From the NCBI GenBank assembly GCA_965208675.1, contig OZ242351.1, forward strand, positions 2,752,001 through 2,816,000: DNA of 64,000 nt, written 5' to 3'. Each line of letters begins with the position of its first letter. The first letter of the stretch is position 1. Source of the stretch: Candidatus Poribacteria bacterium (GTDB lineage: Bacteria; Poribacteria; WGA-4E; PCPOR2b). Under the pieces are notes generated by a model. That model was not told the origin of the DNA and ran no database searches. It saw only the letters and a list, made by a program, of their open reading frames with translations. Of this stretch, positions 3,226 through 27,444 are shown piece after piece. The translations under genes and the position numbers were made by a program.

Positions 3226-4710
3226 TCAGTATATTACCCTTTCCTCCCTAAATAATTCGCCCATCATTATATTACCCTTCCCATCATAAATTCGCCACTC
3301 CCCATCCACTTTTCGCATTTTAAGAACGAATCCAGTGTTCCTGGGGCTATCCGACGTTGGCGCTTCTAATCGGAAATGAAATTCATCGCCGACATATTCA
3401 CTACTCACAATCTCTATCTGACTATAACCCTCCCGCATCTTCGACTGTCCTTCCGGAGTTTGAATTGCATCCAGTCCCTTCAGTATAGACTGAATCACAG
3501 ATTCTCTCGTCTTTTCTACTAACGCTTCTGGCACCCCTTCTGGAAAATTATCTTCAATTGCATTTAAGGTTTCATTTACAAATTCTTCTGGAAACTCCCC
3601 TCCGAGGAAACGTAAACTAGTTTCAATATGATCTCTGTAAGCTCCTGTCACAAAGGGGAGAGTTTCCTCTAAATCCACATTCTTAAGTGCTTCCACATAA
3701 GCGTTCATCACCTCTTCGGCGGATAAGATTGTGCCTTCTGATGCAACGGATGAATCGGTTTCGCCTGATTCGGAATCCTGATTAGATGCCCCGTCCGTTG
3801 CTAGTTGCGACGCCTGCGTTTCCGATTGTTCGTCGGCACCTTCTAGATGATCGAAGAAGTCCTCAATTTGCAGCATCTCTTCTGCGGAGATTTGCGGCTT
3901 ATTTTCGGGTAAAGGTGCGCTGACCGCGCCTTTACGAGCGGTGTCCGTTTGAGCGACCGAGGTTTCAGACTCAGTTGGCGTCGAAGCTACAATCTCAACC
4001 GATGGAGACGAATCTTCTTTCGACGATATGAACTGGCGCGTTCCGATGAAGGCGAGTACAATGATGGCTACCGCCCCGGCGGTGATTTTGGGTACTGTTC
4101 CAACTTTCATGACCGTTAATCCTCCTGAGTAGATTTGTTTGAGTGTGGGCATCGGAGAAACAAACACACCAGTAAGCAGATGACCCAATCGTTTGGCGAG
4201 TTTCTGCTTGGCGCGCGAGAGCCGAAACGAAATCGCCTTGTATGACAACCCATGCGTCCGAATCAGTTCGTCGTAGCCTGCGCCTTCAAGATAGTACGAG
4301 CGAGCGATTTCCCTATCTTTTTGCGGCAACGTTTCAATCGCGCGGCGAATCAGTTCCCTCTGTTCGCGGCGTATCAACTGTTCGTCGGGTGCGTCCGGGG
4401 TTAGGAGTGTGTGTGCGCTCGCTTCATCAATGGAAACAGTATTGACACGCTGTTTTCGCAACCAATCTCGTGCACTGTTTCGGGCAATCTCTGCCAGCCA
4501 GTATTTGAATTTTTCCCGATCCTCATACTGCACCAAGCCACGGTAGGCGTTGAGAAAGGTGTCTTGCACAATCTCTTCGGCATCGTTCGGATTGTTTACA
4601 AATCCGATTACAACCGCATAAACAAAGGCGTAATGCACCCGCATTAACTCCGTGAATGCACCTTCGTCCCCCGCTTGAACGCGGTAAATCAGATCTTTAG
4701 TGTTAGCCAC
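3226..4710 (-). CDS. ECF sigma factor fused to TM helix, acidic linker and NTF2/DUF4878-like domain (family 1, copy A)
   Basis: sigma2 (DAEEIVQDTFL, FKYWL..IARN) and sigma4 (RLSRAKQKL), hydrophobic AGAVAIIVLAFIG, C-terminal SAEEVMNAY...SSEYVGDEFHF...KMRKVDGEWRIY. GTG start with AAGGAGG. Confidence 0.9.
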   Translation of the reverse strand: MANTKDLIYRVQAGDEGAFTELMRVHYAFVYAVVIGFVNNPNDAEEIVQDTFLNAYRGLVQYEDREKFKYWLAEIARNSARDWLRKQRVNTVSIDEASAHTLLTPDAPDEQLIRREQRELIRRAIETLPQKDREIARSYYLEGAGYDELIRTHGLSYKAISFRLSRAKQKLAKRLGHLLTGVFVSPMPTLKQIYSGGLTVMKVGTVPKITAGAVAIIVLAFIGTRQFISSKEDSSPSVEIVASTPTESETSVAQTDTARKGAVSAPLPENKPQISAEEMLQIEDFFDHLEGADEQSETQASQLATDGASNQDSESGETDSSVASEGTILSAEEVMNAYVEALKNVDLEETLPFVTGAYRDHIETSLRFLGGEFPEEFVNETLNAIEDNFPEGVPEALVEKTRESVIQSILKGLDAIQTPEGQSKMREGYSQIEIVSSEYVGDEFHFRLEAPTSDSPRNTGFVLKMRKVDGEWRIYDGKGNIMMGELFREERVIY

Positions 4711-4745
4711 TGTTCTTCATTCCTCCTTATACCCCTTAATCAAAC

Positions 4746-4771
4746 ATAACGACGTTCTGCGATTTTTTCTA
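4746..4771 (-). promoter_or_regulatory. Putative ECF promoter of copy A (TAGAAAAA...CGTTAT)
   Basis: 26-nt motif aligns without gaps upstream of all five family-1 sigma genes. Confidence 0.6.
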
Positions 4772-4790
4772 GCACTTTTTTTGAAGATGT

Positions 4791-4889
4791 AACTGTCTGA
4801 ATCAGGATTTACCGGATTAAAGGATTCCCAGGATATCAGATTAGTCGCGGGTTGAAAATAAAAAAGGCGAATGGGTTGTACCATTCGCC
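4791..4889. repeat. Junction repeat R1 (four GGAT boxes plus minus-strand terminator)
   Basis: aactgtctgaatcaggatttaccggattaaaggattcccaggat...gaaaataaaaaaggcgaatgggttgtaccattcgcc. 91/99 identical to R4 by manual count. Confidence 0.95.
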
Positions 4890-4927: not shown

Positions 4928-6397
4928 TTATTCCCTTGCATAAATTATCCACACTCCATCAACATTCCGCATCTTAACGAGGCGCATTATGCTTTCTGGT
5001 GGCTTTGGAAACCCTGGAGGAAGCTCTCCCAATCCCGGTAGTTTTGGCATCGGCACGCTCAATCGGAAGTGAAATTCATCACCGACATATTCGCTCCTCA
5101 CAATCTCCATCTCCCCATACATTTCCTGTGCCATTTGCCGTATCTTCGCCTGCACTTTTGAATTCTGGTTAATCTCCAACATCATTTGCTGCAGACTATC
5201 CATCTGTTTTTCTGACATCGCTTCTTTTTCTTTCGACATCTCGTCGGAAATACGATCTGCTACGTCTTCTGAAAACCCATCACTGAAGATGTGCAAAGTA
5301 GTTTCAATGTGATTTCTGGCGGTCCCATCTACGTACGGGAGCAATGCCTCAAAGTCAAAAGTCCTATATGCATCGAGATAAGTATCCATCAACTCTTCGG
5401 CGGCAAAACTAGCGCTTTCGGCTTCAAAAGATGAATCAGTGACATTGCCTTTTTGAAAATCTTGATTGGTTGTCTCGTGCGTTGCTAGTTGTGAGATAGC
5501 GGCCTCCGATTGCGCGTCTGACTCATCAAGGTGAGCGAAAAAGTTTTCGATTTGCTGCATCTCCTCTGCAGAGATTTGCGGTTTGTCTTCAGGCACAGAC
5601 GCGACGACTGCGCTTTTACGAGCGGCGTCCGTTTGAGCGACCGAGGTTTCAGGCTCAGTTGGCGTTGAAGCAACAATCTCTTCCGATGGCGACGAATCTT
5701 CTTTCGACGATAGGAACTGGCGCGTTCCGATGAAGGCGAGTACAATGATGGCTACGGCCCCGGCGGTGATTTTGGGTACTGTTCCAACTTTCATGACCGT
5801 TAATCCTCCTGAATAGATTTGTTTGAGTGTGGTTATCGGAGAAACGAATACACCAGAAAGCAGATGACCCAACCGCTTGGCGAGTTTCTGTTTGGCGCGT
5901 GAGAGTCGAAACGAAATTGCCTTGTATGACAACCCGTGCGTCCGAATCAGTTCGTCGTAGCTTGCGCCTTCAAGATAGTACGAACGCGCGATGTCCCTAT
6001 CTTTTTGCGGCAAGGTTTCCATCGCGCGGCGAATCAGTTCTCTCTGTTCGCGGCGTATCAACTCTTCGTCAGGTGAATCCGCGGTTTGAAGCGTACCTTC
6101 GCTCACCTCGTTGATGGATACGGCGTCGATTCGTTGTTGTTCTCGCAACCAGTTTAAGGCTCGATTTCGCGCAATTTTTGCGAGCCAGCCTTTGAATCTT
6201 TTCGTATCCTCAAGTTGTGGCAAACCGCGGTAAGCGTTAAGGAAGATTTCTTGGACAACTTCCTCGGCGTCGTTGGGATTGTTTACGATTCCGATTACAA
6301 TCGCATAAACGAAGGCATAATACGCCTGCATTAACTCAGTGAACGCACCTTCGTCCCATGTTTGGGCGCGAGAAATGAGGGCGTTGTCGTTATCCAC
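4928..6397 (-). CDS. ECF sigma-TM-NTF2-like fusion (family 1, copy B)
   Basis: Paralog of copy A with the same sigma, TM and C-terminal motifs. GTG start with GGAGG. Confidence 0.9.
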   Translation of the reverse strand: MDNDNALISRAQTWDEGAFTELMQAYYAFVYAIVIGIVNNPNDAEEVVQEIFLNAYRGLPQLEDTKRFKGWLAKIARNRALNWLREQQRIDAVSINEVSEGTLQTADSPDEELIRREQRELIRRAMETLPQKDRDIARSYYLEGASYDELIRTHGLSYKAISFRLSRAKQKLAKRLGHLLSGVFVSPITTLKQIYSGGLTVMKVGTVPKITAGAVAIIVLAFIGTRQFLSSKEDSSPSEEIVASTPTEPETSVAQTDAARKSAVVASVPEDKPQISAEEMQQIENFFAHLDESDAQSEAAISQLATHETTNQDFQKGNVTDSSFEAESASFAAEELMDTYLDAYRTFDFEALLPYVDGTARNHIETTLHIFSDGFSEDVADRISDEMSKEKEAMSEKQMDSLQQMMLEINQNSKVQAKIRQMAQEMYGEMEIVRSEYVGDEFHFRLSVPMPKLPGLGELPPGFPKPPESIMRLVKMRNVDGVWIIYARE

Positions 6398-6426
6398 AGT
6401 TTTTCGTTCCTCCGTTGCATTATATT

Positions 6427-6452
6427 AAGACACTGTTCTGCGATTTTTTCTA
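6427..6452 (-). promoter_or_regulatory. Putative ECF promoter of copy B (TAGAAAAA...TGTCTT)
   Basis: Same 26-nt motif as at 4746. Confidence 0.6.
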
Positions 6453-6469
6453 GCACTTTTTTGTGATGT

Positions 6470-6569
6470 AACTGTCTGACTCAGGATTTACCGGATTAAA
6501 GGATTCTCAGGATATCAGATTTTTCGCGGGCAGAAAATAAAAAAAGGCGAATGGGTTGAACCATTCGCC
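6470..6569. repeat. Junction repeat R2
   Basis: Near-identical to R1. Hairpin GGCGAATGG-N6-CCATTCGCC followed by a T run on the minus strand. Confidence 0.95.
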
Positions 6570-6618
6570 TTGTGAAATCTTGGGGAATACGGTTGTGGGT
6601 TTGTTAAGAGTTCCGCTT

Positions 6619-9360
6619 TTAATACAAATAATTAACTTCGTAAATTTGCCATGCACCGTTCTCTTTTCGCATCTTAACAGACGTACCCGGCATCTCTAGG
6701 TGCTCGGGCATCTCCGGCAGCTCTATCCCCTGTAATTCGGGCATCTCCGATATGTCCGGTATCTCTATTTTCGGCATGGCTATTTTCAATTGGAAGTGGA
6801 ATTCATCGTCGACATATTTACTGGTCACAATCTCAACCTGACTGAACATTGATCGCACCATCGGATTCTGCATCGTATCGTTTAACATCTGAATCATACC
6901 GTCCGCCATTTCTTCTGATAACCCAATGTCATTATAATATATATCAACAAGCTCATCCGGAAGCTCACCGTTAAACATGCCTATAAGACCCGTTACCACT
7001 GGTCGGGCAGTGCCTGTCACATACGGCAGCATCGTCTCAAGTTCAAGCTTTCTATACGCCTCTATATAGGCATTCATCAACTCTTCGGCGGATGCATTCG
7101 CGTCGGTTGTGCTGGACTCGGTTTCAGATTCAGACGGTAGTTGGGAGGTGTCCACTTCCGGTTCTTCGATTTGACCGAGGGAGTCCTTGCCAACGATGAC
7201 GGTGGCGCGCTTGTTTCGAGGGAATACACTCGCCGCCAGGTGCTGCATGTCTGCATCGGTAACGCGCTGGATGGCATCACGCAATTCGTTGCCATCCAGT
7301 TTCAGTTGATACCGACGACCGGTGCTGAAAGCTAAACCGTAAAGGTTTTGCGCCCACATGGCATCCGGCACCTCAACTGTGCCCAACATTGCCATTGAGT
7401 TAAGCGTTCGCTGTTTGTCCTCCGGTGTAAGTTTTGTCGCCAACGCCGTGTTTAGGCGTTCGTCGAGTTGAATCAGTGCAATATGGTCGTCTGTGTCAGA
7501 TTGTAGGTCGGTTTGGAGCACAAGTGTGGTATCATCCTCCAGCGGTGTGAAGTACACACGCGGTGTTTTACCCGGCTGAAAGACGAACTGTGCGCTTGCC
7601 CACAAACGCGAGACAACTATCAGGAACGGCGCGTACTCCTTACTCCCGGGTCGGGGTGCAGCATATCCAATCGCTGCGACGCCGGTCGTATCGTCGTTCA
7701 CAGGTTCTGCAGTAAGCAACCGCAGCCCGCCGGTCAATGCTATAGACTTGCGCGGTTTAATAGGGGGCGACACGCTGGGCGAAATGTGACCGAAGTTTTG
7801 GTGAATCAACTGCCGCGCTTCGGCAACGTCAAACCCGCCTGCGATGGCAAGAATGGCGTTGTTCGGTTTGTAGTAATTCTGCCAAAATTGCTGGAGCTCG
7901 TCGAGCGTCATAGTCTCGATGTGCTCGGGCGCGACGCCGACGCGTCCGCCTTCGAGAATCGTGTGCAAGTGAGCTCGAACACTGTTTAAACCGACCAGCG
8001 ACGGGACGCCACTATACATGTTCCTCAACTCCGCCATCACGCGAGGCACCTCACGATTCAGATCGGCTTGGGTAATGCGTAGGTCATTCATGCGGGTAGC
8101 CGCGTCCTTCAATTCGGACGCGAATTGTTTTGCTTCGACGACCCCGGCAAAAACGGTGTAGTCAAATCCCGTGTGCGAGTTCCAGCCTGCAACATAGCGT
8201 GCCTGAAGCTGTATGGCGCCGCGCGCTGGGGAGTCGCCGGCTGCAGCGGTATAATACAGGTGTTCAAGCAGGTGTGCTCTGCCGGACTTTCCGATCGGGT
8301 CGTGGTCTCCGCCCAAATTGAACAGCACTACAACCGCCACTTGGCTTGACGTGGGAACAGGGCGTAGAATGACTGTCAGCCCATTTTCCAGTTTGTACGG
8401 CGCCCGTATCTCGGTCTTTGAAATTTTAACCTCGGCGACGGAGTTGATCGGACTCGGTTGCTCGGGCGAATTACCGACAATCCCCGTGCCGTGTTCACCA
8501 AGAACCGTTGGCGGTTTGGCCCCCTCGGCCACGAGTTCCACCGGAATCTCTGCAAACATTGTCATCTGGATTTCGCTGGGAAGCGGTGAACTGGCCAGAT
8601 CGCCGGGCGTAGCAACTGGTCGGAGAAATTGATTGAAAAGCATAAAGGTAAGTACTATCCCGACGGTCGCTGAACCGATGAATGGAAGCAACGGCTTCGT
8701 TGAAATCGGTTGCACTTTGGTTGACTTAATGGCTTCGACGATTCGGAACGTAAAGCCTGACTGTAATTTTTTCTCTGCAAATGTGGTGTCTATCATCGAA
8801 ATCAACTCCTCCTTCAGTTTGGTTCTGGCTCGCATCAACCGTTGGTTCACGGTGTTGACAGAAGTCCCCAAAAACCGCGCAATCTCCTTGCTACTCAGAC
8901 CGCCAAGATAGTAGAGCGTCAACGTCTGTCGATAGATTTCCGGCAATTGATCAATCGCCTCACGGATGGATTCGGCTGCGGCTTCGCTTCGATAGGCATC
9001 AATTGACGGTGTGTCCAAGAGCGCCGTGTCTTGGTCCTCGATGTAGTCTCCATCTGGACGGCGTAATCGGGATGTGAGAAAATTTGTGCACGAATTAACC
9101 GTAATTGAGAACAGCCACGCTAAGAAGTTATCCCGTCGCTTGAGGGTAGGAAGTTTCTGATAGGCTTTAATAAAGACTTCTTGGGTGATGTCCTCAGCAT
9201 CGTGGAAGTTTCTAAGCTTTGTGTAAGCTAGGGCATAGACGCTCGACTTGTATTTATCAACGAGCAAGCCAAACGCCGCCGATTCTCCATTAAGGCATTT
9301 TCCGATGATGTATCCATCTTCTGTGTACACGGTTCTATTCCTCTCACCAAATGGCTTCAT
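6619..9360 (-). CDS. ECF sigma factor (family 2) fused to TM helix, M16 zinc peptidase and the same NTF2-like domain
   Basis: sigma2 DAEDITQEVFIKAY, sigma4 EIARFLGTSVNTVNQRLMRAR, TM, M16 motifs LENGL, HLLEH (HxxEH), YYKPNNAIL. C-terminal SAEELMNAY...YVDDEFHF...KMRKENGAWQIYE. Confidence 0.9.
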   Translation of the reverse strand: MKPFGERNRTVYTEDGYIIGKCLNGESAAFGLLVDKYKSSVYALAYTKLRNFHDAEDITQEVFIKAYQKLPTLKRRDNFLAWLFSITVNSCTNFLTSRLRRPDGDYIEDQDTALLDTPSIDAYRSEAAAESIREAIDQLPEIYRQTLTLYYLGGLSSKEIARFLGTSVNTVNQRLMRARTKLKEELISMIDTTFAEKKLQSGFTFRIVEAIKSTKVQPISTKPLLPFIGSATVGIVLTFMLFNQFLRPVATPGDLASSPLPSEIQMTMFAEIPVELVAEGAKPPTVLGEHGTGIVGNSPEQPSPINSVAEVKISKTEIRAPYKLENGLTVILRPVPTSSQVAVVVLFNLGGDHDPIGKSGRAHLLEHLYYTAAAGDSPARGAIQLQARYVAGWNSHTGFDYTVFAGVVEAKQFASELKDAATRMNDLRITQADLNREVPRVMAELRNMYSGVPSLVGLNSVRAHLHTILEGGRVGVAPEHIETMTLDELQQFWQNYYKPNNAILAIAGGFDVAEARQLIHQNFGHISPSVSPPIKPRKSIALTGGLRLLTAEPVNDDTTGVAAIGYAAPRPGSKEYAPFLIVVSRLWASAQFVFQPGKTPRVYFTPLEDDTTLVLQTDLQSDTDDHIALIQLDERLNTALATKLTPEDKQRTLNSMAMLGTVEVPDAMWAQNLYGLAFSTGRRYQLKLDGNELRDAIQRVTDADMQHLAASVFPRNKRATVIVGKDSLGQIEEPEVDTSQLPSESETESSTTDANASAEELMNAYIEAYRKLELETMLPYVTGTARPVVTGLIGMFNGELPDELVDIYYNDIGLSEEMADGMIQMLNDTMQNPMVRSMFSQVEIVTSKYVDDEFHFQLKIAMPKIEIPDISEMPELQGIELPEMPEHLEMPGTSVKMRKENGAWQIYEVNYLY

Positions 9361-9597: not shown

Positions 9598-10986
9598 CTA
9601 TTCATAAATTCGCCATGCCCCGTCCTCCTTTCGCATCTTAACAACGTTTTCTACGCTCTCCGGCAACTCTGGCATCTCGTCCAGTAGTTCCGCCCGTAGT
9701 TCTTCCGGCGTATCCCGCATCAGCGGTTCTATCAGTGCTCCAAATTGTGGTAAAGTTGTTCTCACTCGAAAATGGAATTCATCGCCAACATATTCGCTGC
9801 TTACAACCTCGGACCCGCCAAGCACCGGGCCGAACGTCAACTCAATCATCTGCTTGAGCTCTGGATTTTCCTCCATAAAATCTTTCATGTCCGGCAAAAC
9901 ACTTTCCAGCTCTTCTTTAGCAGCCCCTGTCAATAACGGGAGCATTGCCTAAAAGTCTAAATTCTTGGATGCCTCGATATAGGCGTTCATTACCTCTTCA
10001 GCGGATTGTTCCGTGTCTTCAACAACCGCATCGGTACTGATTGAGACATGCTGATCGAAGTCTTGCTGATGTGCGGCTTCTGCGTGTTGTGTTTTGTCCG
10101 ATTGTGCGTCCGCTTCATCGAGTTGAGCGAAGAAGTTTTCAATTTGCTGCATCTCCTCTGCAGAGATTTGTGGTTTGTCTTCAGGCACAGGCGCGACGAC
10201 TGCGCTTTTACGAGCGGCGTCCGTTTGAGCGGCGGAGGTTTCAGCCTCAGTTGGCGTTGAAGCAACAATCTCTACCGTTGGAGTCGAATCTTCTTTCGAC
10301 GAAATGAACTGGCGTGTCCCGATGAAGGCGAGTGCGATGATGGCAACTGCCCCGGCGGTGATTTTGGGAACGGTTCCAACTTTCATGACCGTTAATCCTC
10401 CTGAGTAGATTTGTTTGAGTGTCAACGCGGGAAAGGCGAATACACCAGTGAGTAGATGGCTCAACCGCTTGGCGAGTTTCTGCTTGGCACGCGAAAGCCG
10501 AAACGAAATCGCCTTGTATGACAACCCATGCGTCCGAATCAGTTCGTCGTAGCTGGCGCCTTCAAGAAAGTAGGAGTGAGCGATGTCCCTATCTTTTTGC
10601 GGCAGCGATTCCATGGCACGTCGAATTAGTTCTCTCTGCTCGTCGCGAATCAAGCTTTCGTCAGCAGACTCTGACAACTGAACTGCCCGCTCATCCACTT
10701 CATCAATAGATACGGTGTCCAACCGCTGTTCGCGTAACCAGTTTAAGGCTCGATTTCGCGCAATTTTTGCCAGCCAACTCTTGAGTTTGGTCTGCTCCTC
10801 ATACTGCGCTAAGGCGCAGTAGGCGTTGAGAAAGGTGTCTTGCACAATCTCTTCGGCGTCGTTGGGATTGTTCACGATTCCGATTACAACCGCATAAACG
10901 AAGGCATAATGCGCCCGCATCAATTCAGTGAATGCACCTTCGTCTCCCGCTTGGGCGCGAGAAATGAGCGTATCGTCGTTCCTCAC
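9598..10986 (-). pseudogene. ECF sigma-TM-NTF2-like fusion (family 1, copy C) with a single in-frame TAG at 9949-9951
   Basis: ORFs 9949-10986 and 9598-9945 are in the same frame and read NLDF*AMLP, where paralogs have xDFEA. Confidence 0.85.
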
Positions 10987-11017
10987 CGTAATTCATTCCC
11001 TTCCATCTACGCTATAC

Positions 11018-11043
11018 AGAACACAGCTTTTGAGATTTTTCTA
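11018..11043 (-). promoter_or_regulatory. Putative ECF promoter of copy C (TAGAAAAA...TGTTCT)
   Basis: Same 26-nt motif as at 4746. Confidence 0.55.
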
Positions 11044-11060
11044 GCACTTTTTGGGTATTT

Positions 11061-11189: not shown

Positions 11190-13073
11190 TCATCGAGAGA
11201 CATCCCATAAAAGCACTGTTCCGTCGTAACTTCCACTCCCCAGCGTGCTCCCATCCGGGTTGAATGCCAGGGTACTAATGTACGACGTATGCCCCTTCAA
11301 GCTTCGTCGCTGCGTCTCCGTCTTGGCATCCCACAGAAGGATGATTGCGTCGGCATCCCCACTCGCAAGCGTTCGTCCATTCGGGCTAAACTCTACCGCG
11401 GTAACATCTGCCGAGTGACCGTTTAGCGTTCTACGGTGCGTCCCCGTGGCAGCATTCCAAAGCTGGACGGAATGGTCGCCGCTCCCACTGGCTATCTTGT
11501 TTCCGTCTGAGCTAAAGGCGACGCTCGTGATGTCCGCGGTATGACCCTTTAGTGTTCGGCGGTGCGCGCCCGTGGCGACATCCCAAAGTCGGATGGTTGC
11601 GTCGGTGCACCCGCTTGCCAACGTCGCGCCGTCTGGGCTGAACGCAAGCGTCGAGCGAGCCGGCCTGTAAACGCGAGGAACGGTGTCCGACGCCTCCCAG
11701 TGCAGGTTATGCAGTTGCGCACCCGTCTCGGCATTCCACAGGCGGATAGTTGTTTCGCCGTTCCAACTTGCTACCGCTGAGCCATCCGGGCTGAACGCTA
11801 TGCTGTGGTCTACGCCGTCATCGTTTCGTAATGTCCGCAGATATGCACCTGTCTTTACATTCCAAAGGCAGACGGAATGATGCCCATTTCCACCTGCTAA
11901 CGTTAGCCCATCCGGGCTAAATGCTATGCTATGGGCCTCTGATAAATACCGGTCCAGTGACCGCTTGTGCTCGCCTGTCACAGCATCCCATAAACGAATG
12001 GGATTCAACCGGCTCGCACTTGCCAACGCCGCACCGTTCGGGTTGAACGCTATGCTAATGACGGGTTTTATATGTCCATCCAGCGTCCCTAAGTGCGTAT
12101 CCGTCACCGGATTCCACAGGCGAATTGTCCCGTCGTCACTCCCGCTTACCAACGTTGCACTATCCGGGCTGAAGACGACATGAGTGACCCAACCCGTATG
12201 TCCTTCTAGCTCCCGCAGCCGTGTTCCTGCCGCGACATTCCACAATCCGATGGTCGTGCCAGGCCCACCACTTGCCAAGATACTGCCATCCGGGCTGAAC
12301 GCGACGCTCGAGACCATAGGTATGCGTTCTTCCAGTTGCCAAAGGTGTACTCCGGTCTTAGCGTTCCAAAGTCGGATGCTATCGCCCCAACCGCCGCTTG
12401 CCAGTACGCTGCCATCTGGGCTGAACGCGACCGCGGTGGCATACTCCGTGTGACCTTCCAGAGTTCGTACAGGTACGCCTGTCTCCACATCCCACAGACG
12501 AATAGTCTTGTCATAACTTGCGCCTGCCAACGTCGAGAAATCCGGGCTGAACGCGGCGGTACCAACGGAATATGTATCTCCCTGCGGAGTACGCAGTTCC
12601 AGTGACCGCGTATGTGTTTTAGTCTCGACATCCCACAGATGAACGGTCGTCTGCGACACACCTGCTAGTGTGCTGCCATCCGGGCTGAAAACCACGTTCA
12701 AGGTGCCCTCTGATTTTGCCTCCAGTGTATGTAGGTGTAAACCCGTCACGGCATCCCACAGACGAACGGTATTGTCCGAACTTCCACTCGCTAGCATGCT
12801 GCCATCCGGGCTGAACACTACGCTCGCCACAATTCCCGAATGTCCGGTGAGCAGAGCTATCTCTTGATGGGTCGTTGTATCGTAGAGCCAGATACCGATT
12901 CCGCTGCCGACTGCAAGCCGAGCGCCATCGGGGGAATACTGTATTTGACCTATCGCCCCCTTTCCGATCCGCGCTACAACCCCTTCAGGCAAACCCCACT
13001 GCGAGGCATCTTGCGAAAAGGCGTTGCACAAGGTCAAGGAGAACAGTATATGCAAGGATAAAACTGTTTTCAT
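11190..13073 (-). CDS. Secreted WD40-repeat protein (about 14 blades)
   Basis: Signal peptide, WGLPEGVVARIGKG start, repeated GH...FSPDG.LASG..D..IRLW(D/N). SD AAAGGAG. Confidence 0.95.
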   Translation of the reverse strand: MKTVLSLHILFSLTLCNAFSQDASQWGLPEGVVARIGKGAIGQIQYSPDGARLAVGSGIGIWLYDTTTHQEIALLTGHSGIVASVVFSPDGSMLASGSSDNTVRLWDAVTGLHLHTLEAKSEGTLNVVFSPDGSTLAGVSQTTVHLWDVETKTHTRSLELRTPQGDTYSVGTAAFSPDFSTLAGASYDKTIRLWDVETGVPVRTLEGHTEYATAVAFSPDGSVLASGGWGDSIRLWNAKTGVHLWQLEERIPMVSSVAFSPDGSILASGGPGTTIGLWNVAAGTRLRELEGHTGWVTHVVFSPDSATLVSGSDDGTIRLWNPVTDTHLGTLDGHIKPVISIAFNPNGAALASASRLNPIRLWDAVTGEHKRSLDRYLSEAHSIAFSPDGLTLAGGNGHHSVCLWNVKTGAYLRTLRNDDGVDHSIAFSPDGSAVASWNGETTIRLWNAETGAQLHNLHWEASDTVPRVYRPARSTLAFSPDGATLASGCTDATIRLWDVATGAHRRTLKGHTADITSVAFSSDGNKIASGSGDHSVQLWNAATGTHRRTLNGHSADVTAVEFSPNGRTLASGDADAIILLWDAKTETQRRSLKGHTSYISTLAFNPDGSTLGSGSYDGTVLLWDVSR

Positions 13074-13313: not shown

Positions 13314-15449
13314 TTACTGATAATCAATGTCATAAATTCGCCATTCATCAGCCTCTTTTCGCATCTTATAAGTCATATCCGGAATTTCCAGGTGGTCGGG
13401 CATCTCCGACAGTTCCATCCCCTCCGGCATTTCTATCCCTTGTAGTTCGGGCATTTCCGATACGTCCGGCATCTCTATTTTCGGTATCGGTATTCTCAAT
13501 TTGAAATGAAATTCATTGCCGACAAATTCACTGCTTACAACCGTTAACTGACTGTATATTGAGCGCAAGCCTGCTTGCACCATGGGATTGTTCATAGAAT
13601 CCTCCATCATCTGAACCGTGCCGTCCGGCATGGAATCTATAAGCTCTTCTGGAAACTCACCGCTAAACACGTCCATGGTACTTTTTACCTCTTCTAGGGC
13701 GGTGCCTGACAAATACGGGAGCATCGTATCAAGGTCAAGATTTTTATGTGCCTCTACAAAGGCGTTCATCACCTCTTCGGCGGATACGCCTGCGCTATCA
13801 ACGCTTAATCGTGCATCCGATTCTTCAGAAGAGAGCAGAGAAGCGCCGCCAACGATGACGGTGTCGCGTTTCTCTGGCGAGAATACATTCGCTGCCAGGT
13901 GCTGCATATCTACATCGGTTACACGCTGGATGGCATCGCGCAGATCCCCGCCATTTAGTTTCAGTTGATACCGGCGGCCAATGCTGAACGCTAATCCGTA
14001 CGGATTTTGCGCCCACATGGCATCCGGTACATCAACTGTGCCCATCATTGCCATTGAGTTTATCGTTAGCTGTTTGTCCGCCGGCGTGAGTTTCGGCGTC
14101 AATGCCGTGTTTAGGCGTTGGTCGAGTTGATCGAGCGCTGACTCAATGTCCGCCTCAATTTGCACGTCGGTCTGGAGCACAAGCGTGGTGCCATCGTCCA
14201 ATGGTGTAAAGTACACAGGCGGTGTTTTGCCCGGCTGAAATGCAGCCTGCGCGCCTGCCCACAAACGTGAGACAACTATCAGGAACGGCGCGTATTCCTT
14301 GCTCCCGGGTCGGGGTGCAGCATATCCAATCGCTGCGACGCCGGTCGTAACGTCGTTCACAGGTTCCGCGGTGATGAAGCGAATTGCCCCGGTCTTCGCT
14401 GCAGGCTTGGGCGGCTTTGCAGGCGGAGGCATACCGGACGGAATCAGGCTGAAGTTTTGGTCAATCAAATGCCGCGCTTCGGCAACGTCAAACCCGCCTG
14501 CGATGACAAGAACGGCGTTGTTCGGCTTGTAGTAATCCTGCCATAACTGCTGCAGTTCACCGAGAGTCATTGTCTCAATGTGCTCGGGCGCACCGCCGAC
14601 CCGTCCGCTTTCGGGGATGGGGTGCACCTGAGCTCGCACACGGTTTATGCCGACCAGCGACGGCACGCCGCTGTACATGTTACTCAATTCTGTCATCACG
14701 CGAGGCACCTCGCGGATTAGATCAGCTAAGGTGATTTGCAAATCGTTCATGCGCGCAGCCGCATCCTTCAACTCCAACGCGAATTGCCCTGCTTCGACGA
14801 CACCTGCAAAAACAGTGTAGTCGAACCCTGTTTGCGCGTTCCAGCCTGCAACATAGCGTTCTTGAAGCTTCATGGCGTCGCGCGCTGGGGTGTCACCGGC
14901 TGCAGCGGTGCAATACAGGTGTTCAAGCAGGTGTGCTCTGCCGGACTTTCCGATCGGGTCGTGGTCTCCGCCCAAATTGAACAGCACTACAACCGCCACT
15001 TGGCTTGACGTGGGAACAGGACGTAGAATGACTGTCAGCCCATTGTCCAGTTTGTACGGGGTTGGTATCTCAGAATTCGAAATTGTAGCGGCGGCGTTCA
15101 TCGAACTCGGTTGACCGGGCGAATTGCCGACAACCCCCGTTCCGGGCTCACCGGCAACCGTCGGCGGTTTGGAGGCATCAGCAACGAGTTCAACCGGAAT
15201 CTCTCCAATCATTGTCATCTGGATATCGCTGGGGTACGGTGAACTGGCCAGATCGCCGCGCGCAGCGGCTGGACGGAGCAATTGACTGAAAAACATAAAG
15301 GTAAGCACAATCCCGACTGCTGCTGAACCGATGAACGCAGGCAACGGCTTTGTTGAAATTGGTTGCACTTTGGTTGACTTAATAGCTTCCACGATTCGGA
15401 ACGTAAAGCCTGACTGTAATTTTCTCTCTGTAAATGTGGTGTCTATCAT
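13314..15449 (-). CDS. TM-anchored M16 peptidase plus NTF2-like domain (family 2 module without a functional sigma)
   Basis: Paralog of residues 189-913 of 6619-9360. ATG at 15449 follows AAGGAGGAG. HLLEH motif intact. Confidence 0.8.
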   Translation of the reverse strand: MIDTTFTERKLQSGFTFRIVEAIKSTKVQPISTKPLPAFIGSAAVGIVLTFMFFSQLLRPAAARGDLASSPYPSDIQMTMIGEIPVELVADASKPPTVAGEPGTGVVGNSPGQPSSMNAAATISNSEIPTPYKLDNGLTVILRPVPTSSQVAVVVLFNLGGDHDPIGKSGRAHLLEHLYCTAAAGDTPARDAMKLQERYVAGWNAQTGFDYTVFAGVVEAGQFALELKDAAARMNDLQITLADLIREVPRVMTELSNMYSGVPSLVGINRVRAQVHPIPESGRVGGAPEHIETMTLGELQQLWQDYYKPNNAVLVIAGGFDVAEARHLIDQNFSLIPSGMPPPAKPPKPAAKTGAIRFITAEPVNDVTTGVAAIGYAAPRPGSKEYAPFLIVVSRLWAGAQAAFQPGKTPPVYFTPLDDGTTLVLQTDVQIEADIESALDQLDQRLNTALTPKLTPADKQLTINSMAMMGTVDVPDAMWAQNPYGLAFSIGRRYQLKLNGGDLRDAIQRVTDVDMQHLAANVFSPEKRDTVIVGGASLLSSEESDARLSVDSAGVSAEEVMNAFVEAHKNLDLDTMLPYLSGTALEEVKSTMDVFSGEFPEELIDSMPDGTVQMMEDSMNNPMVQAGLRSIYSQLTVVSSEFVGNEFHFKLRIPIPKIEMPDVSEMPELQGIEMPEGMELSEMPDHLEIPDMTYKMRKEADEWRIYDIDYQ

Positions 15450-15792
15450 TGCAATTGACTCCTCCTTCAGTTTGGTTCTGGCTCGCATCAGCCAGTCGTT
15501 GACGGTATTGACGGAACGCTCAAACACTGCGCAATCTCTTTAGTAAATAGCCCCCTAGTATTTAACCCTTTGCTACGGGTAGAGAGATTCTGATACACTT
15601 AAAAAACATTACGTGCGCGGCATCCTCATCATTAATTAAGTTACTCAGCTTTGCGTAAGCGAGAGCGTAGACGCTCGACTTGTATTTATCAAAGAGCAAG
15701 GCAAATGCCGCCGATTCTCTATTAAGGCATTTTCCGATGATGTATCCATCTTCCGTGTACACGCTGCTGCTCCTCTCACTGAACGACTTCAT
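15450..15792 (-). pseudogene. Decayed family-2 ECF sigma domain
   Basis: MKSFSERSSSVYTEDGYIIGKCLN matches the 9360 N-terminus. About 220 nt shorter than the intact copy and frameshifted before SVNTVN. Confidence 0.85.
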
Positions 15793-17768: not shown

Positions 17769-19271
17769 TCAATCGGATACTGATTCGCGCGAGTCCAATA
17801 TCTCACTCTCATAAACCCGCCACGCGCCATTCCCTTTCCGCATCTTGAAAAGTGTATTTGGCACAATGACGTCTGAGATTTCTATCCATGTAATCTCCGA
17901 CTTATCCGGCGCTGGTCCTCCCAATACAAAGTGAAATTCATCGCCGACATATTCGTTACGCACCACATCTAGCTGACTGAGAGATTTCAGCCACACGTTT
18001 CGCATCTTCCGCTCAAATGCCCCACTTCTTATCTCTTGTTCAATACTCCGCATCTGCTGTTCAGCCATCTGACGCATCTCAACCGGCAAATCCGACAAAT
18101 CTTTTAGCCTATCTAGCAGTTTAGCTAGTTCAGCCGGGTCTAGGATTGGGAAGTTGCCTGTCGCCGCCATGGCCCACTCTCCTTTGATGCGTCCTGTGGA
18201 TAGAGAGTGTACCGCTTCAAAGTCAAGATTCTGAAACCCTTTCACATAAGCGTTCATCACTTCTTCTGCGGATAAGTCCGTGTCTTCTGCTACAACAGGT
18301 GAATCGGTGTCGCCTAATTCGGAATCCTGATTAGATGCTTCATCTGTTGCTAGTTGTGGCGAATCTGCCTCCGATTGTGCGTCTGCACCCTCAAGTTGAG
18401 CGAAGAAGTCCTCAATCTGCCCCATCTCCTCCGCTGAAATTTGCGGCTTACCCTCACGCGAGGGTGCGGCGAACGTACCTTTACGCGTGGCGTCCGTTTG
18501 TGAGGCTAGGTTTGCAGACTCAGTTGATGTTACAATCTCGACCGTAGGGGAGTTATCCTCTTTCGACGATATGAACTGGCGTGTCCCGATGAAAGCGAGT
18601 ACAATGATGGCTACCGCACCGGCAGTGATTTTGGCAACTGTTCCAACTTTCATGACCGTTAATCCTCCTGAATAGAAATTTTTGAGTGAGGTTATCGGAG
18701 AAACGAACACACCGCTGAGCAGATGCTCCAACCGTTTGGCAAGTTTCTGTTTGGCGCGCGAAAGTCGAACCGAAATCGCTTTGTAAGACAGTCCGTGCGT
18801 ACTCATTAGTTCGTCATAGTCCGCACCGTCAAGGTAATAAGAGTGAACAATCTCCCGCTCTTTTGGAGAAAGCGTTCCAAGTGCGCGTCGAATCAGCTCC
18901 CTCTGTTCACTGAGAATCAACTGTTCGTCTGGCAATTCTTGCGTCTTGACGGTGGATTTACCGATTTCATCAAACAGGCTTAATTCGTCTATAGGAACAG
19001 TATCAATCCGTTGTTTTCTCAGCCAACTTCGTGCGCGATTTCGAGCAATCTCTGCGAGCCAAGTTTTGAATTTTGACCTCTCCTCATACTGCGCCAAACC
19101 ACGGTAGACGTTGAGAAAGGTGTCCTGGACAATCTCTTCGGCGTCTTGGGGGTTGTTCACCATATCGATGACGATTGCATAAACGAAAGAGTGATATGCC
19201 CGTATCAGATCGACAAATGCACCTTCATCCCCAGCTCGCGCGCGACAAATGAGTGCGCTGTCATTATCCAC
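17769..19271 (-). CDS. ECF sigma-TM-NTF2-like fusion (family 1, copy D)
   Basis: Same domain motifs as copies A-C. GTG start. Confidence 0.9.
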   Translation of the reverse strand: MDNDSALICRARAGDEGAFVDLIRAYHSFVYAIVIDMVNNPQDAEEIVQDTFLNVYRGLAQYEERSKFKTWLAEIARNRARSWLRKQRIDTVPIDELSLFDEIGKSTVKTQELPDEQLILSEQRELIRRALGTLSPKEREIVHSYYLDGADYDELMSTHGLSYKAISVRLSRAKQKLAKRLEHLLSGVFVSPITSLKNFYSGGLTVMKVGTVAKITAGAVAIIVLAFIGTRQFISSKEDNSPTVEIVTSTESANLASQTDATRKGTFAAPSREGKPQISAEEMGQIEDFFAQLEGADAQSEADSPQLATDEASNQDSELGDTDSPVVAEDTDLSAEEVMNAYVKGFQNLDFEAVHSLSTGRIKGEWAMAATGNFPILDPAELAKLLDRLKDLSDLPVEMRQMAEQQMRSIEQEIRSGAFERKMRNVWLKSLSQLDVVRNEYVGDEFHFVLGGPAPDKSEITWIEISDVIVPNTLFKMRKGNGAWRVYESEILDSRESVSD

Positions 19272-19301
19272 TGTGCTTCGTTCCTCTCTTGTACCTTAAC
19301 C

Positions 19302-19327
19302 AAAACGCCGTTCTGCGATTTTTTCTA
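19302..19327 (-). promoter_or_regulatory. Putative ECF promoter of copy D (TAGAAAAA...CGTTTT)
   Basis: Same 26-nt motif as at 4746. Confidence 0.6.
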
Positions 19328-19346
19328 CTACTTTTTTGGGTATTTT

Positions 19347-19629: not shown

Positions 19630-20439
19630 TTAACTTTTCATCCGATAGATGCGCCATTCCCCGTCTACTTTTCACATGCTAACGACTAGTCCAAAATTGC
19701 TGTATGCATCGGCCATCGGCACGGTCAATCGGAATTGGAATTCATCGCCGACATATTCACTACCCACGATTGTCGTCTGACGGAAAATTCGACGCCATTT
19801 CGCTAGGTTTTCCGGAGATCGAATTGAATCCATTGCTTTGTAAGCCGACTCAACTGCCTCGTCTATTTCAGTTTCGGACATACCATCGTCGATTGAAGTC
19901 AGGTAGTCATTCAGCATTTTTTCCGGCATCACCCCACCGAGAACACTCAAAAGGTTTTCAATAGGTTTCCTGGCATTCTCAGTAGTGAATGGGAGAACCG
20001 TCTCCAAATCGAAATCCCTAAACGCATCCACGAACTTATTCATCACTTGTTCAGCGGGATGCTCTAGATTTGCACCCGAGTCTTCGGAGAAGTGTTCAGC
20101 GCTATCCTGTATTATCTCTGCGTTTAGTGATGATTTCGGTTCATCCAACTCTGGTTGTTCAGCCATGTCTTCGAGTTGGGCGAAAAAGTCCTCAATTTGC
20201 TGCAGCTCTGCGGCAGAGATTCGCAGCGTGTCTTCTGGCAAAGCGCTATCGATTTCGGCATTTCGCGCCGTACGCGTTTGAGCGGCCGAATCTGAAAACT
20301 CCTTTGGCGATGATATTACAATCTCAACCTCTCGATCCGAATCCTCTTCAGCCGAAATGAACCAGAGTGTTATAATCGTGCCGACTAAAATGAGGGCTAC
20401 TGCACCGGCTACGGTTTTGTGAAGCGTTCCAAATTTCAT
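19630..20439 (-). pseudogene. Sigma-less TM-linker-NTF2-like protein with an in-frame TGA at 19672-19674
   Basis: Starts MKFGTLHKTVAGAVAL, homologous to the internal MKVGTVPKITAGAVAI, with its own SD CAGGAG. Ends SM*KVDGEWRIY where copy A has KMRKVDGEWRIY. Confidence 0.8.
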
Positions 20440-25762: not shown

Positions 25763-27196
25763 CTATTCATAAATCTGCCATGTACCGTTCTCTTTTCGCA
25801 TCTTATGAAGAAAGTCGGGCATTTCCGGCATCTCAGGCATCTGAAATGTCTCGGGAATCTCTGAAATGTCCTGCCCAAACCTTCCTAGCATCTCTGACAT
25901 TTCCGGCAACTGGCTCCTTAATCGAAAGTGGAATTCCTCGCCGACAAACTCACTGCTCACAATCTCTGCTTGACTAAACATCTGTTTAAGGATTGGTTGC
26001 ATCATTCCTTGTATCATCTGAAGTGTCTCATCTGCCTCGTCTTCTGGCAAACCACTATCATAAAAAATTTCCTCAATCTCTTGTGGTAACCCTCCTAAAG
26101 GCAAACTACTTTCAAACTCTTCTTTGGCTGCACCTGTCAGAAATGAGAGCATCGCGCCAGCGTCAAAATTCCGGAACGCCTTCAGATAAGCGTTCATTAC
26201 ATCTTCAGCGGATTGAGTGGTGTCTTCTGGCGTCGCCCATGAGTCGGTGGCATCGCCCGCATCGGCGTTCTTATCTAAGGCTTCGTCCGTTACTTGTTGC
26301 GACGTATCCGTCGCCGAATGCGAGTCTGCCTCGTCAAGTTGAGCGAAGAAGTCCTCAATCTGCTGCATCTCTTCTGCGGAGATTCGCGGTTTATCTTCAC
26401 GCGGGGGTGCGGTGACTGCATTACTTCGTATGGCATCCGTTTGGATGGCCGGTTGCGCGGACTCTGTTGAAGTCACAATCTCAACCGACGAGGACGTATC
26501 CTCTTCTGACGAAATGAACTGGCGCGTCCCGATGTAGGCTAGTATGACGACGGCTACTACCCCCGCGGTGATTTTGGGTATTGTTCCAACTTTCATGACC
26601 GTTAATCCTCCTGAATAGATTTTTTTGAGTGTCGACGCGGGAATAGCGAACACCCCAGTGAGCAGATGACCCAACCGCTTGGAGAGTTTCTGTTTGGCAC
26701 GCGAAAGCCGTACCGAAACCGCTTTGTACGACAACCCATGCGTCCTCGTCAACTCGTCGTAGCTTGCGCCTTCAATATAGTACGACCGGGCAATCTCCCG
26801 CTCACCTGGCGAAAGCGTCTCTATCGCACGGCGAATGAGTTCGCTCTGTTCACGGTGTATCAACTCGTCGTCCGGTGCATCCGAGGGCGATAGTGTGTGC
26901 TCCCCCACCTCATTGATGGACACGGTATCAATCCGCTGTTCTCGCTGCCAGTTGAGCGCACGATTTCGCGCAATTTTTGCCAGCCAGTTTTTAAACTTTT
27001 TCGCATCCTCGAGGTCTGGCAGGCCGCGATAAGCGTTGAGAAAAGAATCTTGCACGACCTCTTCGGCGTCTTGGGGATTTTTCACGATTCCGATAACAAT
27101 CGCATAGACATAACCATAATGCACCCGCAATAGATCGACGAATGCACCTTCGTCCCCGGATTGTGCGCGAGCAATTGTGTCCTCGTTAATAATCAC
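25763..27196 (-). CDS. ECF sigma-TM-NTF2-like fusion (family 1, copy E)
   Basis: Same domain motifs as copies A-D. GTG start with GAGAGGA. Confidence 0.9.
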   Translation of the reverse strand: MIINEDTIARAQSGDEGAFVDLLRVHYGYVYAIVIGIVKNPQDAEEVVQDSFLNAYRGLPDLEDAKKFKNWLAKIARNRALNWQREQRIDTVSINEVGEHTLSPSDAPDDELIHREQSELIRRAIETLSPGEREIARSYYIEGASYDELTRTHGLSYKAVSVRLSRAKQKLSKRLGHLLTGVFAIPASTLKKIYSGGLTVMKVGTIPKITAGVVAVVILAYIGTRQFISSEEDTSSSVEIVTSTESAQPAIQTDAIRSNAVTAPPREDKPRISAEEMQQIEDFFAQLDEADSHSATDTSQQVTDEALDKNADAGDATDSWATPEDTTQSAEDVMNAYLKAFRNFDAGAMLSFLTGAAKEEFESSLPLGGLPQEIEEIFYDSGLPEDEADETLQMIQGMMQPILKQMFSQAEIVSSEFVGEEFHFRLRSQLPEMSEMLGRFGQDISEIPETFQMPEMPEMPDFLHKMRKENGTWQIYE

Positions 27197-27225
27197 TGTG
27201 AGTTGTTCCTCTCTTTAACCTAATA

Positions 27226-27251
27226 AAGACACGGTTTTACGACTTTTTCTA
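27226..27251 (-). promoter_or_regulatory. Putative ECF promoter of copy E (TAGAAAAA...TGTCTT)
   Basis: Same 26-nt motif. No junction repeat upstream, so this marks the array edge. Confidence 0.55.
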
Positions 27252-27444
27252 CTTCTTTTTTGCTTTCGTTCTCCTGTTGTTGCTATTTCCTTTCAAAACT
27301 GGGGGACGAACCATGCTGCGATTAGTGATTGCGGAACCAACTGACGCCGTGCTAAAATTGAAATTTGATTCCCTAATTCTTTCGCCGCTAGATGCCACCA
27401 TCGCGCATCATCCGACATAATACTCCGCTTGTCAGTTTGACACT

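Follow-up and report, generated by a model that had tools for sequence, protein, structure and literature searches.

A probable internal translation start at the sigma boundary of fused ECF sigma factor genes in a sponge-associated poribacterium

The 64,000-nucleotide stretch of DNA analyzed here (the window) is part of the 4,892,038-base genome of a Candidatus Poribacteria bacterium, a sponge symbiont, and its minus strand carries a cluster of genes for fused extracytoplasmic function (ECF) sigma factors between approximately 3.2 and 27.2 kb. This cluster is comprised of five paralogous open reading frames (ORFs) of one family (family 1) and two larger ORFs of a second (family 2). At the junction, the boundary between sigma domain and extension directly behind sigma region 4, these genes possess a Shine-Dalgarno (SD) sequence followed by a start codon that is in frame with the fusion. 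The junction is probably an internal initiation site, such that each gene would give rise to both the sigma fusion and a sigma-less protein. An initial annotation of this DNA had described a hidden ribosome binding site at the sigma/transmembrane boundary of every fusion and had proposed that one gene specifies two proteins. The site itself is borne out, as it is enriched at the sigma boundary, conserved at synonymous positions, surrounded by start-like sequence, and the first codon of natural sigma-less derivatives. That the site fires in the intact fusions, and what the resulting short form does there, we infer from these properties.

The junction site in the window

The fusions in the window are assigned to the ECF (group 4) sigma factors of the sigma-70 family, as Pfam identifies regions 2 and 4 and reports no further sigma region. 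In gene 3226-4710 these are Sigma70_r2 at residues 22-88 (E = 1.7e-15) and Sigma70_r4_2 at residues 119-171 (E = 1.1e-6). The membrane-spanning extension is part of the same polypeptide: the genes are single ORFs of 345-913 amino acids, with a hydrophobic stretch 5-8 residues past the junction Met.

In family 1, the junction is marked by a 32-mer, TCAGGAGGATTAACGGTCATGAAAGTTGGAAC, with five exact matches that all lie on the minus strand (4097-4128, 5781-5812, 10373-10404, 18640-18671, and 26583-26614). No near-match with three or fewer mismatches is present elsewhere in the window or in the whole genome, and the chance expectation obtained from 100 shuffles is 0. As originally described, each copy places AGGAGG 10 nt 5' of an ATG (at 4110, 5794, 10386, 18653, and 26596) that is in frame with the ORF containing it (Table 1). 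A codon alignment of the five genes shows ten successive identical codons, SGGLTVMKVG, while the next-longest identical run spans three codons. When all 342 columns were permuted, none of 5000 trials produced a run of ten or more identical codons; with permutation restricted to the 162 residue-invariant columns, 22 of 5000 did. In sister genomes the spacer differs synonymously (TTAACC, CTTACA, CTTACG), while RGGAGG and the ATG are constant. Frameshifting was considered as a separate role for the 32-mer and rejected: the TAA that it contains in the +1 frame is not conserved (the spacer of relatives reads CTTACG), and ATG AAA G does not constitute a slippery heptamer.

The two family-2 genes contain an SD of different sequence at the equivalent position. 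Here the arrangement is AAGGAGGAG-N9-ATG, with ATGs at 8796 (AAGGAGGAG at 8806-8814) and 15449 (AAGGAGGAG at 15459-15467), again in agreement with the initial annotation. The 3' end of the 16S rRNA of this organism is CACCTCCTTTCT, which provides a canonical anti-SD, and GGAGG peaks 5-10 nt ahead of crude gene starts across the genome. Consequently, the junctions combine an in-frame start codon, an SD at a working distance, and a matching anti-SD.

Occurrence of the site across the genome

Sigma region 4 was matched 45 times in the genome, 29 times within a fused ORF and 16 times within an ordinary short sigma gene. An in-frame start codon (26 ATG, 1 GTG) is located 0-28 codons past region 4 in 27 of the 29 fusions, and the duplex energy of the accompanying SD ranges from -9.7 to -15.8 kcal/mol. 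The claim that every fusion has the site was therefore too strong, as two fused ORFs are without it. In a control set of random 90-codon windows from long ORFs, -9.7 kcal/mol is reached in 87 of 3000 (2.9%). Internal in-frame ATGs preceded by GGAGG at 5-10 nt are similarly scarce (87 of 17,166, or 0.5%, a frequency equal to that of out-of-frame ATGs), and 14 of these 87 are found where an ECF sigma domain ends. The titles and abstracts of two papers state that SD-like motifs are generally depleted inside genes. The control genomes included in the Pfam genome search contained no fused examples for comparison.

The residues that spell the SD differ among the approximately 11 families of fusions (SGG, TGG, KEE, RKEM, KKEM, SEEM, KGGF, ERRK, KRRI, LGGT, and REEF). 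When the codons were recoded synonymously, 0.1-39% of the trials for a gene equalled the SD strength of the native sequence; for four families this fraction was below 2%. The surroundings of the junction also resemble those of a gene start. A 50-nt stretch spanning the junction ATG shows weaker folding than the ORF average in 26 of the 27 fusions, with a G+C content that is mostly lower, and the junction SD equals or exceeds the best N-terminal candidate in 18 of 27. Furthermore, all eight family-1 genes in the genome have GTG at the N-terminus and ATG at the junction.

The families outside the window differ in several respects. Family F consists of five tandem sigma fusions of approximately 950 amino acids (genome positions 4147300-4161200), four of which keep AGTGAGGAGATG-N6-ATG, whereas the fifth has lost the SD and kept Met-Met. 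Families I and H (genome positions 3224950-3227450 and 512930-513630) have no hydrophobic helix after the junction Met, and their junction SDs are -15.8 kcal/mol (family I, the strongest of all) and -12.2 kcal/mol (family H). As these extensions do not contain a transmembrane helix, the site marks the boundary between sigma domain and extension, not a transmembrane boundary.

Conservation in related genomes

Conservation was examined in 41 related genomes labelled Candidatus Poribacteria. Family 1 is found in 24 of the 41, with up to 17 copies each, and its 202 matches are all in open frames. None of the 38 junctions that were read contains a stop codon, and the start codon is ATG in 37 of 38 and GTG in the other. 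The tree used for parsimony counts of changes comprised 45 distinct family-1 sequences drawn from several genera. GGAGG is completed by the third position of the first Gly codon, where 40 of 43 sequences have A and 3 changes are counted. The third position of the second Gly codon does not contribute to GGAGG and varies, with 11 changes (A 20, T 14, G 8, C 2); the median over the 61 four-fold columns is 8 changes, and GGA accounts for 26% of the Gly codons in family-1 ORFs. The Ser codon before Gly-Gly is TCA in 32 sequences and TCG in 10, and is never TCY. A further Gly codon, at +3 after the junction ATG (MKVG; 4099-4101 and the corresponding codons of the other four copies), is GGA in 43 of 44 sequences with 1 change.

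Family-2-like genes are present in 35 of the 41 genomes, with more than 360 matches, and both ATG and SD are found in 29 of 30 junctions. Within these 29 junctions the Glu codons located 4-6 codons before the ATG, which form the core of the SD, are GAG in 39 cases and GAA in 0, against a background of 447 GAG among 1093 Glu codons (41%); Glu codons 2-3 before the ATG are GAA 10 times and GAG 2 times. The Lys codons behave similarly, with AAG 15 and AAA 1 at position -5 and AAA 15 and AAG 0 at positions -7/-8. Free synonymous variation of the SGG and KEE codons had been named as an observation that would speak against a second start; in these homologs the SD-forming positions are held and neighboring synonymous positions are free. 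Stop codons in family-2-like matches were inspected as candidates for natural split sigma/sensor pairs, and were found upstream of the true start codon and not at the junction. Five genomes of the same order and another family (G025, G028, G031, G034, and G037) each contain 26-37 family-2-like fusions of approximately 1000 amino acids, a very large expansion.

In this more distant taxonomic family the site is found less consistently: of 39 junctions, the start position is occupied by ATG in 24, GTG in 1, and another codon in 14. A strong SD accompanies 17 of the 25 junctions with ATG or GTG vs 3 of the 14 others (Fisher p = 0.008, uncorrected for kinship). Judging from these junctions, SD and start codon are kept or lost together. 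Taken together, the conservation of SD and start codon exceeds the demands of the protein sequence, an effect that is modest per gene in the recoding trials.

Sigma-less derivatives

The window also contains genes that start at the junction Met and have no sigma domain. In the 13314-15527 copy of family 2, approximately 90 sigma residues are deleted between two remnants, while the SD, the ATG at 15449, and the 711-residue ORF are intact; the initial annotation had already noted an intact module next to a decayed sigma. The ortholog in a sister species has the same decayed remnants and an identical SD-spacer-ATG. The 711-codon modules of the two species are 90.7% identical, with a dN/dS of 0.37 and a dS of 0.12, while the upstream sigma remnants share just 21-64 identical bases per 100 aligned columns. 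These substitution patterns indicate that the 711-residue module has been under purifying selection since the sigma domain decayed.

In family 1, gene 19672-20439 has no sigma domain and uses the homologous Met (MKFGT) as its start, preceded by an SD of its own, ACAGGAGAAATT, which confirms the earlier description of this gene; it is short of its orthologs by approximately 14 C-terminal residues. One relative contains a copy without any sigma domain in which the end of the linker, the SD, the ATG, and a 278-residue ORF are retained. Among aligned sigma-less database homologs, 27 of 31 start at MK[VFI]GT, and this set includes a lineage orthologous to gene 20439. Six sigma-less family-2 clusters begin at MIDT. 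The alignments thus identify the junction ATG as a working start once sigma is gone, and the junction site can serve as a start because maintained sigma-less genes begin at exactly this Met.

Alternative explanations

Three alternatives were weighed against internal initiation, each of which explains less of the evidence. The first is an elongation pause, in which the SD-like sequence slows ribosomes at the domain boundary to assist sigma folding or membrane targeting, and the Met is kept for reasons of protein function. Ribosome pausing at SD-like sequences has been proposed in the literature, and the motif is located at the domain boundary in every family. A pause is nevertheless improbable. 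It would not account for an in-frame ATG that is conserved 5-11 nt past the motif in 37 of 38 and 29 of 30 junctions, for GTG as the sole clear substitution of the family-1 start, for the loss of the start codon along with the SD, or for the weak RNA structure nearby, nor would it explain why sigma-less genes begin at this very ATG. Moreover, families H and I have the site without a transmembrane helix, such that membrane targeting does not provide a general reason for it.

The second alternative, already raised in the initial annotation, is that of a relic: an anti-sigma or sensor gene would have been fused to the upstream sigma gene by loss of a stop codon, and its former start would persist without a present function. 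The unfused ECF genes of this genome place the SD and start of the downstream gene likewise just past region 4, and some fused paralogs have lost the site and kept the ORF. Enrichment at the boundary alone cannot separate a relic from selection, because fusion of a sigma/anti-sigma operon would leave the same arrangement; conservation can. All of the family-1 (more than 200) and family-2-like (more than 360) matches examined are fused, across several taxonomic families (38, 30, and 39 junctions read), and therefore the fusion is old. Over this time the SD-forming synonymous positions have been held while their neighbors are saturated, whereas a relic should decay as the remnant upstream of 15449 did. 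With these positions held and the sigma-less genes maintained, a relic is unlikely, marginally more so than a pause.

The least credible of the three is passive upkeep, in which the site starts translation only in sigma-less copies and the fused copies keep it through gene conversion or recent recurrent origin: sigma-less paralogs of both families do lie in the same cluster, and the five copies in the window share a perfect 32-mer while spacers in sister genomes differ, which points to homogenization of paralogs, but families A-F, H, and I have the site and no sigma-less paralog in the genome as a possible donor, such that gene conversion cannot explain it there, fused copies outnumber sigma-less ones (8 to 1 in family 1, 1 to 1 in family 2, and up to 17 fused family-1 copies per relative), and the variation of spacer synonymous sites beside constant SD positions argues for selection on the site instead of copying of the whole tract.

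Several observations weigh against internal initiation, and the first of them concern absence of the site. The two fusions in this genome that do not have the site are both still fused ORFs; one is a paralog in a five-gene tandem cluster, in which SEEM has become SEDL with the Met kept, and the other is an unrelated fusion without the Met. Among relatives, the family-1 site is weakened or lost in approximately 4 of the 38 junctions, which remain fused, and in the more distant family 14 of 39 junctions have neither ATG nor GTG and 8 of the 25 with ATG or GTG have a weak SD, all still fused. The junction site is consequently dispensable in fused ORFs. Other points concern the strength of the conservation. 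Recoding p values for the Gly-Gly and Lys-Glu-Glu families are modest (0.05-0.39), because those residues favor SD-like DNA, and the counts over paralogs and relatives are not independent, as the genes are kin, making parsimony change counts the fairer measure. As the spacers of sister genomes carry synonymous differences, the perfect five-way identity of the 32-mer is probably in part the result of homogenization (concerted evolution) among clustered paralogs, in addition to selection on the site. The most constrained four-fold site in the family-1 alignment is the GGA at +3, beyond the SD Gly itself, and this constraint is only loosely explained as a start-region effect within reach of the initiating ribosome. 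Finally, the junction spacing of 10-11 nt from GGAGG lies at the long end of the range for gene starts, and ribosomes arriving from the upstream start may occlude the junction site.

Proposed roles of the two products

Internal initiation suggests a scheme in which selection preserves the SD and in-frame ATG behind region 4 because translation can begin there a second time. The same mRNA would yield the full fusion from a weaker upstream start (GTG in the eight family-1 copies) and a sigma-less product from the junction ATG. In the preferred role, the short form would be the bulk working membrane or ectodomain protein. It could in addition pair with the sigma-tagged copy or compete with it, and in this way would set the threshold for proteolytic release of sigma from the membrane.

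The initial annotation had suggested an anti-sigma, decoy, or oligomer partner role for the free sensor, and these options fare differently in the two families. A classical anti-sigma role is implausible for the predicted family-1 short form because only 8 residues precede the transmembrane helix. Pfam finds no anti-sigma family in the family-1 extension, and no zinc-finger or FecR-type domain. The short form of family 1 more likely serves as a partner, as a decoy, or as the bulk working ectoprotein. In contrast, the family-2-like short form could rebind released sigma through its conserved cytosolic N-terminus of approximately 38 residues. For this role complex prediction offers a weak hint: folding of sigma (residues 1-188) against residues 189-230 gave a score of 0.32 vs 0.01 for the best control, with a partner predicted local distance difference test (pLDDT) value of at least 38, and at least 0% of contacts shared between runs. 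In the calibration of these predictions, 58 of 80 solved complexes reach this mark, as do 2 of 110 mismatched pairs, but only 7 of those 80 have scores of 0.60 or below.

Architecture and neighborhood of the fusion genes

The layout of the family-1 proteins is shared. Past the end of region 4, near residue 171, come a 28-residue linker and Met201; 8 residues separate this Met from a hydrophobic helix, which a low-complexity spacer connects to the C-terminal domain. The AlphaFold2 model of the short form has a mean pLDDT of 63.5; the putative transmembrane helix occupies residues 11-31, where pLDDT is low, while residues 128-285 are mostly above 70 and contain helices followed by four strands. 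The C-terminal domain has no Pfam match. Its top Foldseek matches are mostly NTF2/SnoaL/KSI-like, with a best E of 5.4e-3 and none reaching E 0.001. In the family-2 fusion 6619-9360, Pfam identifies sigma regions 2 and 4, Sigma70_ECF, Peptidase_M16 (E = 1.9e-5), and Peptidase_M16_C (E = 4.2e-11). The translation contains HLLEH, and HxxEH is the defining zinc motif of the M16 (pitrilysin) peptidases. Approximately 130 C-terminal residues of the family-2 M16 proteins (6619-9360 and 13314-15527) correspond to the putative NTF2-like module of family 1 (AEELMNAY...EIVTSKYVDDEFHF...KMRKENGAWQIY), and the module has therefore been shuffled between the families.

Table 1. Features of the sigma-fusion cluster in window coordinates.
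Feature	Position	Strand	Description
Family-1 fusion, 494 aa	3226..4710	-	GTG start; sigma regions 2+4 at residues 22-171, linker of 28, Met201, transmembrane helix, putative NTF2-like ectodomain
Predicted short form of 3226-4710	3226-4110	-	294 aa
32-mer of gene 3226-4710	4097..4128	-	AGGAGG 4121-4126, 10-nt spacer, in-frame ATG 4108-4110
Conserved upstream block	4711-4790, 6398-6470, 10987-11060, 19272-19340, 27197-27270	-	
Terminator-like hairpin and T-run	4866..4889	-	between 4928-6397 and 3226-4710
Family-1 fusion, 489 aa	4928..6397	-	junction ATG 5794
Second terminator-like hairpin and T-run	6544-6571	-	
Family-2 fusion, 913 aa	6619..9360	-	ECF sigma, junction Met189, ~38 cytosolic residues, transmembrane helix, M16 pair, putative NTF2-like C-terminal module
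Family-1 fusion cut to 345 aa	9949..10986	-	junction ATG 10386; ends ...KNLDF, without the putative NTF2-like C-terminal domain
Sigma-less family-2 module, 711 aa	13314..15449	-	starts at junction ATG 15449
Decayed sigma remnant	15450..15792	-	region-4 tail in frame to ~15527; first 75 sigma residues in another frame, 15568-15792
Stand-alone ORF, 186 aa	17111..17671	-	putative NTF2-like C-terminal module alone; ends early
Family-1 fusion, 500 aa	17769..19271	-	junction ATG 18653
Sigma-less family-1 paralog, 255 aa	19672..20439	-	starts at homologous Met (MKFGT), own SD upstream
Family-1 fusion, 477 aa	25763..27196	-	junction ATG 26596

The terminator-like hairpins point to separate transcription of each family-1 gene. 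A conserved block, AAAAAGTGCTAGAAAAAATCGCAGAAC..., is located approximately 45-80 nt 5' of each family-1 GTG start, just past the hairpins at 4866-4889 and 6544-6571, and is probably a promoter shared by family 1. No promoter-like minus-strand site was found inside the sigma-coding part of 3226-4710 or 4928-6397 using the sigma-70 consensus, from which the promoters of this phylum may differ. A region-wide scan with this consensus returned 4 sites vs 3.5 expected and is uninformative, since the promoter type of the phylum may be different. ECF-type promoters combine a GGAAC -35 with a CGT-type -10. The GGAAC that follows the junction ATG was evaluated as such a -35 and rejected, as no CGT-type -10 is present at 16-17 nt and a transcript from there would not contain the ATG. 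A WD40-type repeat protein of 627 amino acids with a signal-like N-terminus is encoded at 11190-13073 within the sigma-fusion cluster.

Relation to known systems and significance

Hybrids of sigma and anti-sigma factors and in-frame internal starts are each known already. A full-text literature search (supplements aside) returned no publication that describes internal initiation within a sigma fusion gene and no papers on ECF sigma factors of Poribacteria. The closest relatives in architecture are IutY of Pseudomonas putida (ECF243), the sigma domain of which is freed through regulated proteolysis by Prc and RseP (PMC8999054, PMC5411451), and the ECF48/52/53 fusions, such as SCO4117, which are predicted to work like IutY (PMC8999054, PMC7826278). 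As described in the relevant passages of these papers, those proteins likewise combine an ECF sigma factor and a membrane-spanning C-terminal extension with an extracytoplasmic part in one polypeptide; unlike here, the same passages mention no internal start or sigma-less isoform. In the IutY mutagenesis paper, the terms 'start codon', 'internal', and 'translat' are absent, and the N-terminal HA tags used there are blind to, and would have missed, any short form (PMC5411451). Family 1 further differs from the IutY hybrids in having no room for an anti-sigma domain, and the ectodomains here are putative NTF2-like and M16 peptidase domains.

The junction site can also be compared to separate genes. 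Two-gene ECF sigma/anti-sigma operons, represented in this genome by 16 unfused ECF genes, likewise have the SD and start codon for their second protein directly behind region 4. In contrast to those operons, the fusions have no stop codon, their parts are in frame, and their second part does not contain the ZAS-type anti-sigma domain that follows the unfused genes. RsgI9 of Clostridium thermocellum (PDB 7sjy, S1C-NTF2 ectodomain) is a membrane-bound sigma regulator with an extracytoplasmic NTF2-like module, to which the putative module of family 1 would correspond, and it is the second-ranked fold match to the family-1 C-terminal domain, a weak one (E = 7.6e-3, TM-score 0.17-0.18). Unlike family 1, RsgI is separate from its sigma factor and belongs to a sigma-I system, not an ECF system.

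In-frame internal starts that produce shortened isoforms are known from CheA-S, IF2 beta, ClpB-79, and the C-terminal fragment of ArcB. As in these cases, an SD and in-frame start are situated inside a longer ORF, and the predicted short form is without an N-terminal functional domain. The present site differs in being found at the same domain boundary in approximately 11 diverged families of one genome and across an order, in splitting a transcription factor from its membrane or sensor part, and in being predicted from sequence.

Fused ECF sigma factors have so far been regarded as one-component systems, with sensing and, after cleavage, transcription assigned to a single polypeptide. If the genes described here also supply a sigma-less partner, the modeling of stoichiometry, threshold, and shut-off would change, as would annotation, since the short product is invisible to gene callers. 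Synonymous-site conservation can expose internal starts of this kind in uncultivated organisms. A more speculative proposal, held only tentatively, is that fused ECF genes of Poribacteria, and possibly sigma/anti-sigma hybrids elsewhere such as IutY, normally specify two proteins, an abundant sigma-less ectoprotein (a binder or peptidase) and a minority sigma-tagged sentinel, and that dozens of such genes per genome replace classical sigma/anti-sigma pairs. Were this the case, proteolytic release of the sentinel isoform would report the state of the whole protein pool to RNA polymerase.

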